From contig JBJEPV010000127.1 in assembly GCA_051881415.1 (NCBI GenBank), positions 1-35,880 of the forward strand: a stretch of 35,880 nt of DNA, read 5' to 3'. Position numbers and translations under genes: made by a program. The stretch's first letter is position 1; the number at the start of each line of letters is the position of its first letter. Under the pieces are notes generated by a model. It made no database searches, was not told the origin of the DNA, and saw only the letters and a program-made list of their open reading frames with translations. This DNA is from Candidatus Fimenecus sp. GTDB lineage: Bacteria > Bacillota > Clostridia > Oscillospirales > Acutalibacteraceae. This document shows positions 2,196 through 35,278 of this stretch, piece after piece.

Positions 2196-3410
2196 ATGAA
2201 ATATGTAGTGGTATTATGTGACGGTATGGCGGACTATCCTGTGCCCGCCCTGGGGGGCAAAACCCCGATGATGTGCGCTGACAAGCCGCATATCGACGCG
2301 CTCGCCCAAAAAGGCGAGGTCGGGCTTGTACGCACGGTTGCCGCGGGGTTAAAGCCCGGCAGTGATGTTGCCAATATGAGCGTTTTGGGCTTTGACCCGA
2401 AAAAATACTATACGGGGCGTTCGCCGTTGGAGGCGGCAAGCATCGGTGTGGATTTGAAAGATACCGATGTGACCTTGCGCACCAATCTTGTCACATTGTC
2501 CGACGCGCCGAATTATGAAGACAAAACCATGGTGGACTATTGCGCGGGCGATATTTCCACGGCAGAAGCCGCCGAGATTATGCAAGATGTCGAAGCACAC
2601 TTCGGCAACGAAATGTTCAAGTTTTATGCGGGCGTCAGTTACCGCCACTGTTTGGTTTGGTCGAACGGCACAACCGACCTCGGCAATATGACGCCGCCGC
2701 ACGATATTTCGGGGCGCGTGGTCGGCGAATATCTTTCCGAATCCGAAAATGCCAAGCCGTTAATTCAAATGATGAAAGACAGTTACGCGTTTTTGTCCGA
2801 ACACCCCGTCAACAAAAAGCGTGTTGCCGAGGGCAAACGCCCCGCAAACTCCATTTGGATGTGGGGCGAGGGCAAAAAGCCGATGTTGCCCGCGTTTTCC
2901 GATGTGTACGGCAAAAAAGGCGCAATCGTTTCGGCGGTTGACCTGTTAAAAGGCATTGCCAAATGTGCCAAAATGGAAGCCCCCGAGGTCGAGGGCGCGA
3001 CCGGCTATATCGACACGAATTTCGAGGGCAAGGCGCACGCCGCAGTGGACGCGCTCAAAAACGGCTGTGACTTTGTGTATATCCATTTGGAAGCGCCCGA
3101 CGAGTGCGGACATCGCAACGAGCCCGAAAACAAGGTGAAAGCCATTGAAATGATTGACAGCCGCGTATTGCCGATTGTGCTGGACGGCTTACAGGAAATC
3201 GGGGAGGACTATAAAATTATGGTCTTGCCCGACCACCCCACACCGATTGTCACGCAAACCCACGCCGCCGACCCCGTGCCGTATTTGATTTATCACAAGG
3301 CGAACGAAAAACAGGGCGTGGACAGTATCAACGAAGAAACCGCAAAAAATACGGGCATTTTCATTGAAAACGGCCCCGATATTATGCGTAAATTTTTGGA
3401 GGAAGCATAA
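2196..3410 (+). CDS. cofactor-independent phosphoglycerate mutase family metalloenzyme (ApgM-like; same family as the proposed alternative homoserine kinase)
   Basis: GGAGG RBS. N-terminal VVVLCDGMADYP, central MTPPHDISG, and C-terminal HLEAPDECGHRNE and VLPDHPTP metal-binding blocks are characteristic of the archaeal-type iPGM/ApgM fold. Confidence 0.82.
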   Translation: MKYVVVLCDGMADYPVPALGGKTPMMCADKPHIDALAQKGEVGLVRTVAAGLKPGSDVANMSVLGFDPKKYYTGRSPLEAASIGVDLKDTDVTLRTNLVTLSDAPNYEDKTMVDYCAGDISTAEAAEIMQDVEAHFGNEMFKFYAGVSYRHCLVWSNGTTDLGNMTPPHDISGRVVGEYLSESENAKPLIQMMKDSYAFLSEHPVNKKRVAEGKRPANSIWMWGEGKKPMLPAFSDVYGKKGAIVSAVDLLKGIAKCAKMEAPEVEGATGYIDTNFEGKAHAAVDALKNGCDFVYIHLEAPDECGHRNEPENKVKAIEMIDSRVLPIVLDGLQEIGEDYKIMVLPDHPTPIVTQTHAADPVPYLIYHKANEKQGVDSINEETAKNTGIFIENGPDIMRKFLEEA

Positions 3411-4685
3411 ATGCAGGATTACGCGCTTGAAACCAAATGCGTGCAGTGCGGGTACAGCCCCAAAAACGGCGAACCGCGCGTACTGCCGATTTACCAAAGT
3501 ACAACTTATAAATACGATACCAGCGAAGCGATGGCAAAGCTGTTCGATTTAGAGCCGGGGTATATGTATACCCGCCTTGCCAACCCCACCAATGACGCCG
3601 TTGCCGCAAAAATCACCGCGCTCGAAGGCGGCGTTGCGGGCGTGCTGACTTCTTCGGGGCAGTCGGCGAATTTCTTTGCGCTGATTAACATTCTCGGCGC
3701 AGGCGACCATTTGGTTTCCGCCGCAACCATTTACGGCGGCACATTTAATCTGTTCAATGTGACCATGCGTAAAATCGGCATCGAGGTTACCTTTGTTGAC
3801 CCGAATGCAAGTGAGGAAGAACTGGCGGCGGCGTTCCGCCCCAATACAAAGGCGATGTTCGGCGAAACGATTGCAAATCCCTCTTTGGATATTCTCGATA
3901 TTGAAAAATTTGCCCGCGTTGCCCACGCGCACGGTGTGCCGCTCATAGTGGACAACACCTTCCCTACACCGATTAACTGCCGCCCGTTCGAGTACGGCGC
4001 GGATATTGTCACCCACTCCACCACCAAATATATGGAGGGGCACGCCACCACCATCGGCGGCGCGGTCATTGACAGCGGCAATTTCGATTGGGAACAAAAC
4101 GACAAATTTCCGGGGCTTACCACGCCCGATGAAAGTTATCACGGCGCGGTGTATACCCGTGATTTCGGCAAAGCGGGGTACATCACCAAAATCGTCGCCC
4201 AGCTTTTGCGCGATTACGGCTCTACACCGTCACCGCAAAACAGTTTTTATCTGAATTTGGGGTTGGAAACGCTCGCTCTGCGCGTCGAGCGCCACTGCGA
4301 AAATGCGCAAACCGTTGCCGAGTATCTCGCCAAGAATGACAAAATTTCGTGGGTGAATTACCCGGGGCTTCCTGACAACAAATACCATGCGCTCGCCCAA
4401 AAGTATATGCCGAAAGGCACCTGCGGCGTGATTTCGTTTGGCGTGAAAGGCGGCAGAGAAGCGGCAGAGAAATTTATGAATTCTTTGAAACTTGCCGCGA
4501 TTGTCACACACGTTGCCGACGCGCGCACCTGTGTACTGCACCCCGCATCGTCCACACACCGCCAACTTTCCGACAAGGAATTGGTGGAGTGCGGCGTAAC
4601 ACCCGATTTAATCCGTCTGTCGGTCGGCATTGAAAATGTCAACGATATTTTGGCGGATATTGAACAGGCGTTGCAGACGTTGTAA
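3411..4685 (+). CDS. metY: O-acetylhomoserine aminocarboxypropyltransferase / sulfhydrylase (PLP-dependent, Cys/Met metabolism family)
   Basis: ATG immediately follows the stop of the upstream gene (TAAATG). Family blocks present: YTRLANPT, SSGQSA, VDNTF, PLP-lysine context HSTTKYMEGH, and C-terminal LIRLSVGIE. Confidence 0.9.
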   Translation: MQDYALETKCVQCGYSPKNGEPRVLPIYQSTTYKYDTSEAMAKLFDLEPGYMYTRLANPTNDAVAAKITALEGGVAGVLTSSGQSANFFALINILGAGDHLVSAATIYGGTFNLFNVTMRKIGIEVTFVDPNASEEELAAAFRPNTKAMFGETIANPSLDILDIEKFARVAHAHGVPLIVDNTFPTPINCRPFEYGADIVTHSTTKYMEGHATTIGGAVIDSGNFDWEQNDKFPGLTTPDESYHGAVYTRDFGKAGYITKIVAQLLRDYGSTPSPQNSFYLNLGLETLALRVERHCENAQTVAEYLAKNDKISWVNYPGLPDNKYHALAQKYMPKGTCGVISFGVKGGREAAEKFMNSLKLAAIVTHVADARTCVLHPASSTHRQLSDKELVECGVTPDLIRLSVGIENVNDILADIEQALQTL

Positions 4686-5874: not shown

Positions 5875-5910
5875 AGGCGGGGTGTATATGCCCGCCTTTT
5901 TCGTGCTTTT
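5875..5910 (+). terminator. rho-independent terminator after the cysS-to-phosphoesterase block
   Basis: 7-bp GC-rich stem AGGCGGG / CCCGCCT (5875-5881 / 5891-5897) with a 9-nt loop, followed by TTTTCGTGCTTTTTT. Confidence 0.7.
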
Positions 5911-5934: not shown

Positions 5935-5963
5935 TTGCAAATTTCAGCCTATGCGCATAAAAT
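5935..5963 (+). promoter_or_regulatory. sigma-A-like promoter upstream of the RAYT gene (and possibly ilvD)
   Basis: TTGCAA (5935-5940), 17-nt spacer, TAAAAT (5958-5963). Confidence 0.45.
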
Positions 5964-6008
5964 AGTAAATAATTCGTTCTGAGTATGCTGTAAGTTCAGC
6001 GTGTTTGT

Positions 6009-6033
6009 GTAGGGAACGGTCTTGACCGTTCCG
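6009..6033 (+). repeat. REP-like element, GTAGGG head plus 9-bp hairpin (GTAGGGAACGGTC-TT-GACCGTTCCG)
   Basis: Identical 25-mer at 35234-35258 (+) and 6349-6373 (-). Lies 27 nt upstream of the RAYT-like ORF. Confidence 0.75.
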
Positions 6034-6059
6034 AAAAAAGGAAAAGTCAACCGCGGGAA

Positions 6060-6569
6060 ATGGGTGAAACTATGAATTTGCCAAACAGAAAATTACCGCG
6101 TTTAAAAGACTATGATTATGCCGCACAAGTGTATTATTACCTCACGGTTTGTACGCATAATAAGGAAAACATATTTGGTTGTGTAGGGAACGGTCAAGAC
6201 CGTTCCGCCGTGCATCTCACAAAAATCGGAAAAATCGCCGAAGCAGAACTCTTAAAAATTCCAACTCGCTATAACGGTGTTCGGATTGACGATTACATCG
6301 TTATGCCGAATCATATTCATCTGATTTTGATTTTGGGCTGTGACCTTGCGGAACGGTCAAGACCGTTCCCTACGGTATCGGAAATCATCGGGCTTTACAA
6401 ATCGGGCGTGAGCCGACGGATACACGCGGAAACAGAGTATCAAAACCCGATTTGGCAGAAATCATTTTATGATACCGTTTTGACAAACGAACAGCAGTAC
6501 CTTTCCGTTCGAGAATACATTGCCTATAATCCTATTAAATGGAAACAGGGAAAAGGAACGGATTTTTAA
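6060..6569 (+). CDS. REP-associated tyrosine transposase-like protein (IS200/IS605 Y1 HUH superfamily, RAYT-like)
   Basis: HUH motif in [13 protein letters not shown]. The C-terminal block [30 protein letters not shown] parallels, from memory, the E. coli RayT/YafM block WQPRFWEHAIRN..DY...VDYIYINPVKHG that carries the catalytic Tyr. Cognate-looking GTAG-headed hairpins are adjacent and internal. The start (6060 vs 6072) is uncertain. Confidence 0.75.
6183..6207 (+). repeat. intragenic REP-like copy (GTAGGGAACGGTC-AA-GACCGTTCCG)
   Basis: Same head and stem as 6009-6033, but the loop dinucleotide is AA instead of TT. Read in frame as VGNGQDRSA inside the RAYT ORF. Confidence 0.7.
6349..6373 (-). 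repeat. intragenic REP-like copy, inverted orientation
   Basis: The reverse complement of 6349-6373 is exactly GTAGGGAACGGTCTTGACCGTTCCG. Read in frame on the plus strand as AERSRPFPT, immediately after the HUH strand. Confidence 0.7.
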
Positions 6570-6613
6570 AGTATGCATTTTATTTTGTTATATCACTTCC
6601 GGGAGGCAAAAAT

Positions 6614-8281
6614 ATGAAATTACGCAGTGACAACATTTTAAACGGCGTGGAACGCGCGCCGAACCGCAGTCTGTTTTATGCAATGGGCTATACAAAGGAA
6701 GAACTCGAACGCCCGTTAATCGGCATTGTTTCCGCGCACAGCGAAATTGTGCCCGGGCATTTTCATTTGGATAAACTCACCGAAGCGGTCAAAGCGGGCG
6801 TGCGTATGGCGGGCGGCACACCGATTATGGTGCCGGCTATCGGCGTTTGCGACGGCATTGCCATGGGGCATATCGGGATGAAATACTCTCTGCCCTCGCG
6901 CGAATTGATTGCCGACAGCGTCGAGACGATGGCAATGGCGCACGGCTTTGACGGGCTTGTGCTCGTGCCGAACTGCGACAAAATCGTGCCCGGTATGCTG
7001 TTGGGCGCGCTTCGCATCAATATTCCGACCGTGGTTTGCTCGGGCGGCCCGATGATGTCCGGCCTTGTGGACGGCGTGGAAACCTCGCTTTCCAAAATGT
7101 TTGAAGCCGTCGGTGCGCGCAAAGCAAATATGATTGATGACGCAAAACTTTGCGAATTTGAAAACAACACCTGCCCGGGCTGCGGCTCGTGCTCGGGTAT
7201 GTATACCGCCAACAGTATGAACTGCCTTTGCGAATCTTTGGGCATTGCCCTCCCCGGTAACGGCACCATTCCCGCCGTGCACGCGGGCAGAACGCAACTT
7301 GCGAAACACGCCGGTATGGCGATTATGCATTTGGTCGAAAATGACATCAAAGCGCGCGATATTGTCAACGAAAAATCCTTGCGCAACGCTTTGGCGTGCG
7401 ATATGGCGCTTGGCTGTTCGTCCAATTCCGTATTGCATTTGTTGGCGATTGCCAAAGAGGCGGGTTGCCCGATGGATTTAAAGACCTTTAACGAAATGAG
7501 TGCGAAAGTGCCGAATCTTTGCCACTTGGCGCCCGCAGGCCCCACCCATATGCACGACCTCAATAACGCGGGCGGCGTGCCTGCCGTACAGGCGGAACTT
7601 GCGAAAAAGGGGCTGCTCGATTTGTCGCTTTTGACCGTTACGGGCAAAACCGTCGGCGAAAATATCGAAGGCGCGTATATTAAAAATACCGACGCCATTC
7701 GTCCGATTGACAATCCGTACAGCGAAACGGGCGGCATCGCCATTTTGTGGGGCAATATTGCCAAAGACGGCTGTGTTGTCAAACGCAGTGCCGTCGCGCC
7801 CGAAATGCTGGTGCATTCCGGCCCTGCACGCGTGTTTGACAGTGAGGACGAGGCGATTGCTTCGATTTACGAAGGCAAAATCAAAGACGGCGATGTTGTG
7901 GTGATCCGTTACGAAGGCCCTGTCGGCGGCCCCGGTATGCGCGAAATGCTCAACCCGACCTCGGCTTTGGCGGGTATGAAACTCGACAAAACCGTGGCGC
8001 TCATTACCGACGGGCGTTTCTCGGGTGCGTCGCGCGGCGCGTCCATCGGGCACGTTGCGCCCGAGGCGGCTTGCGGCGGTGAAATCGGTTTGATTGAAGA
8101 AGGGGATATGATTGACATTGATATTCCGAATGCTTCCGTCAATGTTCGCGTTTCCGATGAGGAATTGGCAAAGCGCAAAGAGCGTTATGTGCCGCACGAA
8201 CCGAAAATCAAGAGCGGTTGGCTTGCGCGTTACACCGCGATGGTTTCCTCTGCCAAAGACGGCGCAGTTATGAAAATCTGA
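6614..8281 (+). CDS. ilvD: dihydroxy-acid dehydratase
   Basis: Preferred start is ATG 6614 with a GGGAGG RBS at 6601-6606 (the ORF-track start 6539 overlaps the RAYT gene). Blocks present: [61 protein letters not shown], and C-terminal [11 protein letters not shown]. Confidence 0.95.
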
Positions 8282-34956: not shown

Positions 34957-34983
34957 GTAGGGACGGGCGTCCTCGCCCGTCCG
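34957..34983 (+). repeat. REP-like element (GTAGGGACGGGCG-TCCT-CGCCCGTCCG)
   Basis: GTAGGG head followed by a perfect 9-bp GC-rich stem with a 4-nt loop. Confidence 0.7.
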
Positions 34984-35018
34984 CAAAAATTCATCCAATT
35001 TCCGCGGGCGAACGCCGC

Positions 35019-35149
35019 GTAGGGACGGGTGATTCCCCTGATAGGGGAAATGTTTGCGAAGCAAACAAAAGGGTGCCAGAATTCGGAGAATTTGCTCCCG
35101 ACGCAAGGTGCCCGTTTTCGGAGAAAATCCTCGCCCGTCCGCCCCCTAC
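35019..35149. repeat. composite REPIN-like unit bounded by inverted GTAGGG heads
   Basis: Left end is GTAGGGACGGG (35019, +). Right end is CCTCGCCCGTCCGCCCCCTAC (to 35149; reverse complement GTAGGGGGCGGACGGGCGAGG), which repeats the 3' arm of the 34957 element. The interior carries its own hairpins, TTCCCCT/AGGGGAA and TGTTTGC/GCAAACA. Confidence 0.55.
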
Positions 35150-35154
35150 GAATT

Positions 35155-35181
35155 GTAGGGAACAACCTTAGTGTTGTTCCG
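35155..35181 (+). repeat. REP-like element (GTAGGGAACAAC-CTTAGT-GTTGTTCCG)
   Basis: Same GTAGGGAAC...GTTCCG frame as the RAYT-linked element but a different stem core. Confidence 0.7.
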
Positions 35182-35201
35182 TAAAATCGCATTAAAATTC
35201 A

Positions 35202-35228
35202 CGGGCGGCCGAGGTCGTCCGCCCCTAC
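35202..35228 (-). repeat. REP-like element, inverted (GTAGGGGCGGACGACCTCGGCCGCCCG on the minus strand)
   Basis: GTAGGG head on the minus strand with a GGGCGG/CCGCCC stem. Paired tail-to-tail (hairpin ends adjacent, heads outward) with the 35155 element across a 20-nt AT-rich linker. Confidence 0.65.
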
Positions 35229-35233
35229 CATAT

Positions 35234-35258
35234 GTAGGGAACGGTCTTGACCGTTCCG
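35234..35258 (+). repeat. REP-like element identical to the RAYT-proximal copy
   Basis: 25/25 identity with 6009-6033 and with the reverse complement of 6349-6373. Confidence 0.8.
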
Positions 35259-35278
35259 TAAATTCATATCAAAATTGA

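Follow-up and report, generated by a model that had tools for sequence, protein, structure and literature searches.

A RAYT-like transposase gene with GTAG-headed REP hairpins just upstream of and inside its coding sequence

The transposase gene and its repeat units

The window, by which we mean the whole stretch of DNA analysed here, comprises 35,880 nt of contig JBJEPV010000127.1 (assembly GCA_051881415.1) from Candidatus Fimenecus sp. It contains a gene for a Y1-type transposase and several copies of a short hairpin, two of which lie within the gene. The features of the region are as follows.

5935-5963, plus strand: promoter-like site (TTGCAA, 17 nt, TAAAAT), a match to the consensus only
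6009-6033, plus strand: upstream REP copy, exact match, GTAG head on the plus strand, loop TT
6060-6569, plus strand: ORF of 169 aa for a RAYT/TnpAREP-like Y1 HUH transposase, with Pfam, NCBIfam and 4ER8 matches
6183-6207, plus strand: internal REP copy 1 (loop 1), exact match, head on the plus strand, loop AA, translated VGNGQDRSA
6187-6369, plus strand: direct-repeat interval GGAACGGTCAAGACCGTTCC, with 20-nt repeats at 6187-6206 and 6350-6369
6349-6373, minus strand: internal REP copy 2 (post-HUH loop), exact match, head on the minus strand, translated (A)ERSRPFPT
34957-35228: other GTAGGG-headed hairpins with different stems, at 34957 (+), about 35019 (+, split), 35155 (+) and 35203 (-)
35234-35258, plus strand: extragenic REP copy, exact match, 29 kb from the gene

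A preceding sequence-only reading of this DNA had reported a 25-nt element at four sites, and our search for GTAGGGAACGGTC-NN-GACCGTTCCG returned exact matches at all four (6009, 6183, 6349 and 35234), the number of chance matches in dinucleotide-preserving shuffles being 0.00. The loop bases given in that reading, TT (6009), AA (6183), TT (6349) and TT (35234) on the head-bearing strand, are correct, while the distance from the upstream copy to the ATG at 6060 is 26 nt and not 27 nt. The repeat unit consists of GTAG, a 9-bp stem and a 2-nt loop, adding up to 24 nt (GTAG + 9 + 2 + 9), and it conforms to the description of a REP as a palindromic stem-loop of 20-40 nt with a 5′ GTAG. The proposed in-frame translation of the internal copies was borne out (residues 42-50 and 97-105), as was their position on either side of 141 nt (6208-6348) encoding MPNHIHL. 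Because the stem is palindromic, the two internal copies double as a 20-nt direct repeat (stem-loop-stem) on the plus strand. The REP at 35234 and the hairpins of 34957-35228 make up a BIME-like array with four different stems (window 34957-35260). An Rfam scan of the whole window gave zero families at the gathering threshold, so the hairpins do not correspond to a described RNA family. It was also noticed that the hairpin near 35019 is apparently interrupted by some 105 nt of inserted sequence bearing the TTTGCGAAGCAAA hairpin, and that 'GCGAAGC' hairpin modules akin to this insert are located between REPs in loci L010 and L028; these modules may represent a second small repeat family targeting REPs.

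Assignment of the gene product to the RAYT-like Y1 transposases, as had been suggested, is supported by Pfam, by a match to a solved structure and by the predicted fold. The protein scored 27.7 bits with Pfam Y1_Tnp, above the cut-off of 23, and the best NCBIfam model was REP_Tyr_transpos (64.5 bits), compared with 23.3 bits versus a cut-off of 55 for the IS200 model; that REP_Tyr_transpos, an equivalog model, was matched under its 80-bit cut-off counts against the RAYT/REPtron explanation developed below. The closest solved structure in the PDB sequence match was 4ER8, the TnpAREP of E. coli. The AlphaFold2 model (pLDDT 83.8) has the Y1 transposase fold expected of a RAYT/TnpAREP, the Foldseek matches being the Y1 transposases ISDra2, IS608 and 4ER8, the last with TMq 0.59 and E = 1.4e-6. 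Both the HUH and the Tyr motif of this class are present: H85-I86-H87 (nt 6312-6320) within MPNHIHL (residues 82-88), and EYIAYNP, whose Y153 is the predicted catalytic Tyr and which aligns to the DYIYINP segment of 4ER8; the corresponding tyrosine of the E. coli enzyme is catalytic. Both REP-encoded peptides sit in lower-confidence connecting segments of the model. The loop-1 copy is located between two short strands, E40-42 and E51-53 (mean pLDDT 76 for the block of residues 41-50), and the post-HUH copy in the loop joining the HUH strand (85-92) to helix 106-124 (mean pLDDT 69 for the block of residues 91-100). The ORF begins at 6060, and the start of most homologues corresponds to the second ATG, 6072 (MNLPNRK); judging from this alignment, the true start is probably the ATG at 6072, the annotated one being 12 nt too early. 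Upstream of the gene, a terminator-like site of the preceding gene was found at 5880-5893, and the promoter-like site at 5935-5963, if used, would place the upstream REP in the 5′UTR.

The gene order Cys_Met_Meta_PP or Metallophos, followed by the RAYT gene and ilvD, is common to loci L197, L209, L213 and L116. The common neighbours in four related genomes indicate a resident chromosomal gene, as RAYTs are, and no hopping insertion sequence; judged from the synteny in these loci, the gene is single-copy, vertically inherited and housekeeping-like. It is also flanked by a GTAG palindrome (6009) that is found elsewhere (35234), with the same arrangement in homologues, and the upstream copy at 6009-6033 is kept in the orthologues L213, L209 and L116. 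Two of the five orthologous genes are dead (L209:2890-3560 and L116:6440-6900, orthologous to window 5960-6620). In L209 there is a +1 frameshift, together with one disrupting point mutation in each of the upstream and loop-1 REP stems, the post-HUH copy being intact, and in L116 a 163-nt deletion matches exactly the interval between the direct repeats GGAACGGTCAAGACCGTTCC, HUH codons included, and leaves a 62-aa stub. In addition, half-genes that end at a REP were seen in L020 and L065. The loop of the loop-1 copy is AA in the window and TT in the orthologues L213, L209 and L197, the AA being what conversion by the post-HUH copy would produce. On the evidence of the aligned loci, the internal copies do recombine. 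Deletion or inversion of the HUH segment had been raised as a possibility; the deletion is found in L116, and inversion of 6208-6348 was seen at none of the five orthologous loci, where the L116 deletion and the L209 frameshift were the only such changes.

The internal copies in homologues and the repeat in other genomes

Homologues without the loop-1 copy are shorter by exactly 8 codons (24 nt). It had been argued that simple insertion could not preserve the frame since 25 nt is not a multiple of 3, an objection that falls away with a unit of 24 nt. About 13% of close homologues have the copy, sporadically, and its patchy distribution requires at least six changes on a rough tree; in the lineage of the window it has been retained since the split from L197 (66% identity). 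It is reversed in L203, and loop 1 of L198 contains two exact copies and several degenerate tandem copies. These results show that loop 1, a permissive loop on the protein surface, gained its copy later, when a single 24-nt REP unit was inserted in frame, and that such insertions have recurred among family members, with the unit in one or the other orientation and at times in tandem. The earlier idea of REP capture into surface loops fits this first copy; it does not extend to the two copies as equivalents, since the post-HUH one occurs in 109 of 121 close homologues versus about 13% for loop 1.

In the post-HUH loop, the peptide ERSRPFPT is near-invariant in the alignment of homologues otherwise about 50% identical, the figure of 109 of 121 including close variants of it. 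For nine homologues of 48-66% protein identity, which were picked by protein only, all with the peptide, and for which the DNA was fetched afterwards, the coding sequence was identical in every case (GGAACGGTCAAGACCGTTCCCTAC, 24 nt), with zero synonymous differences among the 13,824 synonymous codings that by our own count are possible for the peptide. In a second subclade, with proteins about 30-35% identical to that of the window, the identical DNA lies in the same loop and is read in another frame, giving VGNGRDRSL in L096, L077 and L065, and L016 (Calditrichia), the protein of which is 34% identical to that of the window, reads the hairpin as NGRDRSL; in all four the hairpin is of the double-headed form with loop GC. 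Since one DNA is read in two frames, the conserved thing is the nucleic acid and not the peptide. The post-HUH copy is thus an old dual-coding segment, in which the hairpin with its CTAC/GTAG head is under selection and the peptide is a by-product.

The same loop was examined in a distant set of 80 metagenome homologues of 30-40% identity, 81 loci together with the window. A perfect stem of at least 7 bp was found in the 105 nt after the HUH motif in 65% of the 81 loci, compared with 2.5% for a C-terminal and 5% for a mid-gene control region, and in codon shuffles the best stem averaged 4.4 bp. The hairpin usually ends with CCCTAC, the reverse complement of the GTAGGG head, which is read as Pro-Thr at a fixed distance ahead of the next helix, the Pro codon preceding the anchor Thr being CCT in 36 of 41. 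Among 12 anchored sequences, 94.8% of the cells were paired and 17 cells had changed on both sides, a result equalled by 0 of 500 shuffles, with slid controls pairing at 38-54%. The lineage-specific stems give peptides such as GRMISAPT, GRAMRAPT and VGAIHESPLQ. As to orientation, post-HUH loops had the CTAC head only in 24 cases, both heads in 17 and GTAG only in 4, and the loop-1 hairpins had GTAG only in 16 and CTAC only in 0. Partial tandem duplications are present in some post-HUH loops, e.g., L165, L173, L175 and L179. Some homologues have no insert whatever in this loop, e.g., L183 and L125, which indicates that the peptide is dispensable for the fold, and the lack of the hairpin in about one third of the homologues means that it is not obligatory.

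Comparison of internal with extragenic hairpins, which had been proposed as a check, revealed that the hairpins carried at the nucleotide level in the loops of homologues have matching extragenic counterparts close to the same gene: in 18 of 53 own loci the inner 8 bp of the internal hairpin, together with its loop, were found again outside the gene, versus 9 of 2756 cross-locus pairs. In L200, L204, L206 and L208 the called start is preceded, at a distance of 41-164 nt, by a plus-strand copy; in L202 such a copy adjoins the start, and in L205 a stem variant is located at -47. All 10 loci with the post-HUH copy also have, no more than about 300 nt away, a partner in the opposite orientation. 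This partner is in the 5′UTR, in loop 1 or at the 3′ end, and its variable place argues against one fixed architecture or regulatory design. L205 was also seen to contain two Y1_Tnp genes 2 kb apart (437-817 and 3011-3463), the second of which is without a post-HUH hairpin and is preceded by hairpin variants in tandem whose stems differ in a compensatory way (GGAACGGGC/GCCCGTTCC and GGAATGGGC/ATCCATTCC).

An exact-pattern scan for the 24-mer, with one genome per species, detected it in at least 116 stretches from at least 79 assemblies. Among the matches listed, most were from gut Oscillospirales and had loop TT, the double-headed form with loop GC occurred in many environmental phyla, several contigs per assembly carried the 24-mer, and a RAYT homologue was present in only 10 of 116 stretches. 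A stop-free frame of at least 150 codons covered 26% of the REP sites listed versus 83% of random sites, in keeping with the view in the sequence-only reading that the GTAG-headed repeat is genuine, dispersed and for the most part extragenic. Head-outward doublets with spacers of 25-65 nt, as in REPINs and BIMEs, were found in L022, L048, L050, L072, L073 and L099, and mixed clusters with other GTAGGG-headed hairpins in L010, L069, L115 and the window (34957-35260). Being dispersed, avoiding long ORFs and occurring in doublets and clusters, the unit is in these respects a bona fide GTAG-type REP. The spacers of the six doublets, inspected by eye as possible shrunken RAYT fragments, had no obvious resemblance to the gene. 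In the flanks of the protein-selected loci, about 180 kb, nearly all copies were within 600 nt of the gene, and this concentration suggests that the REP family may be low-copy. The scan also yielded a perfect 28-nt double-headed palindrome, GTAGGGAACGGTCGCGACCGTTCCCTAC, in loci such as L007, L011, L013, L015, L018, L056 and L066; its dispersed copies belong to Planctomycetales, Smithellaceae, Elusimicrobia, Ignavibacteriales and further environmental phyla. For one REP sequence to be common to several phyla is unusual.

Possible roles of the internal copies

We lean, by a modest degree, toward regarding the ORF as a single-copy, vertically inherited RAYT gene inside its own REPtron, with REPs of the cognate type just upstream of and within the coding sequence. 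The internal copies would then be putative substrates or binding sites of the RAYT on single-stranded DNA, and RAYT-mediated or recombinational exchange could keep them identical to the extragenic REPs. The post-HUH copy would act as an unlosable resident copy by which the transposase and its cognate REP are co-inherited. Against this explanation stand the possibly low copy number of the REP family, the homologues that have no post-HUH hairpin and the changing place of the partner copy. Recombination of the internal copies would be the cost, to which the flipped loop sequence in the window and the deleted HUH segment in a relative could be attributed; loss of the catalytic segment is promoted by the internal repeats, and this may drive RAYT decay.

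A further proposal, put forward tentatively and with the balance on the doubtful side, is that the post-HUH loop is the master copy of the cognate REP, from which the extragenic REPs have been seeded or to which they are re-registered by the enzyme. If it is true, transposase and repeat are physically inseparable, and the proposal would explain why one 24-nt hairpin accompanies proteins about 34% identical in different phyla. In TnpAREP of E. coli the hairpin is contacted by R78 and K82 (PMC3479197), the equivalents of which would, according to the 4ER8 alignment, lie just after the post-HUH loop. With the post-HUH peptide just before a helix of this R78/K82 type, the peptide that the REP encodes may be close to the bound DNA, and we speculate that the REP encodes part of its own recognition surface.

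The internal copies might instead limit expression of the gene at the mRNA level, the upstream or loop-1 copy pairing with the inverted post-HUH copy in a perfect duplex of about 26 bp. Such a duplex would enclose the start codon and the first 100 codons, so that reduced translation or cleavage by a double-strand-specific RNase would keep the transposase low. The RNA fold of 6000-6385 does predict this long-range duplex (z = -4.9 versus shuffles), although a fold of this kind is predicted for any perfect inverted repeat; the upstream copy would belong to the 5′UTR if transcription began from the promoter-like site, and IS200 is known to be repressed by a 5′UTR structure (PMC3733652). The opposite copy within about 300 nt in all ten post-HUH loci is also as expected, but its placement in the 5′UTR, in loop 1 or at the 3′ end provides no constant geometry relative to the ribosome-binding site. 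Since, in addition, neither the dispersal of the hairpin elsewhere in the genome nor the retention of the GTAG/CTAC head is explained in this way, we consider self-limitation through the mRNA unlikely as the explanation.

To a similarly low degree of probability we hold that the internal copies are tolerated junk, i.e., that a cis-acting enzyme preferentially drops REPs near and in its own gene and that in-frame hits in two permissive loops survive without function. The loop-1 copy, which is patchy, occurs in both orientations and shows tandem and partial duplications, agrees well with this, as do the partial tandem duplications in the post-HUH loops, the one third of homologues without a hairpin and the in-frame REPs known in other genes (PMC3733652). 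Neutral inserts should decay, however, yet 24 of 24 nt of the post-HUH copy are identical over nine lineages with 48-66% protein identity, and the DNA persists through a change of reading frame between subclades. The fixed codon position of the CCCTAC head ahead of the next helix and the strong orientation bias are likewise against a lack of function.

A programmed DNA switch, in which the RAYT would catalyse inversion or excision of the HUH segment at the REP copies and thereby turn the gene off and on, appears very improbable. L116 is without exactly the interval between the internal copies, and the half-genes of L020 and L065 end at a REP; however, the 163-nt deletion of L116 is out of frame and irreversible, with a 62-aa stub, it is explained by recombination or slippage between the 20-nt direct repeats, and there were zero inversions among the five orthologous loci. 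Finally, that ERSRPFPT and VGNG.DRS are conserved as peptides, with the likeness to the repeat secondary, can practically be dismissed in spite of the near-invariance of ERSRPFPT in the protein alignment, for protein constraint is ruled out by the identical codons in 9 of 9 homologues and by the reading of identical DNA in another frame in the second subclade, and in distant homologues the peptide changes freely along with the stem, the pairing of the bases being preserved.

The findings bear on two open questions in the field, the basis of the lasting match between a RAYT and its REPs and the origin of REP families; RAYTs and REPs have been studied mainly in Proteobacteria, in which the REPs flank the gene. 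The clade with a REP in the ORF offers a built-in marker of cognate specificity that can be read from the gene alone, as well as a natural dual-coding test in which hairpin, head and protein loop are constrained jointly, and it is accessible to direct experiments, among them synonymous recoding and cleavage assays on the strands of the gene itself. The REP in the ORF also accounts for the recurrent annotated peptides 'VG....RP', 'GR...APT' and 'ERSRPFPT'.

Comparison with known systems

REPtrons, i.e., tnpAREP/RAYT genes flanked by REPs or BIMEs, have been described in E. coli, Stenotrophomonas and Marinomonas (PMC3333891, PMC8266576, PMC3479197). The locus described here resembles them in the Y1 HUH fold and motifs, in the gene being single-copy (by synteny) at a conserved chromosomal position, and in having GTAG-headed perfect palindromes by the gene in inverted orientations with others dispersed; as in group 3 REPs, GTAG stands immediately before a perfect stem with a short loop. 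It differs from REPtrons in that one REP is inside the ORF right after the HUH strand, conserved and dual-coding, with a second in another loop, and in that the REP sequence of the window type is unusually conserved across phyla. Short palindromes inserted in frame, namely intragenic REPs and Rickettsia palindromic elements, lengthen otherwise conserved proteins by 8-30 residues at the surface, the reported host genes being mostly those for DNA replication and repair and the inserts species-specific (PMC3733652). The loop-1 copy fits this pattern exactly, whereas here the host is the transposase itself and the post-HUH copy is orthologous and nucleotide-invariant family-wide.

REPINs are inverted REP doublets (PMC3116915), and the head-outward pairs in related genomes are like them, the upstream/post-HUH and loop-1/post-HUH pairs being oriented likewise; unlike in REPINs, functional coding sequence of 141-315 nt fills the spacer in the present pairs, and there is no sign of the large unit being copied. 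With IS200/IS605 elements the locus shares a homologous transposase, sub-terminal hairpins and a 5′ tetranucleotide guide, but the gene is not present in several identical copies and has kept its synteny across species, and the hairpins are on opposite strands. An autonomous IS200/IS605 element is ruled out by the single syntenic locus and the opposite hairpin orientations. No report of a REP inside a RAYT ORF was found in the portions of the main RAYT, REP, REPIN and HUH literature covered by our search. REPtrons, REPINs and in-frame intragenic REPs are all known already.
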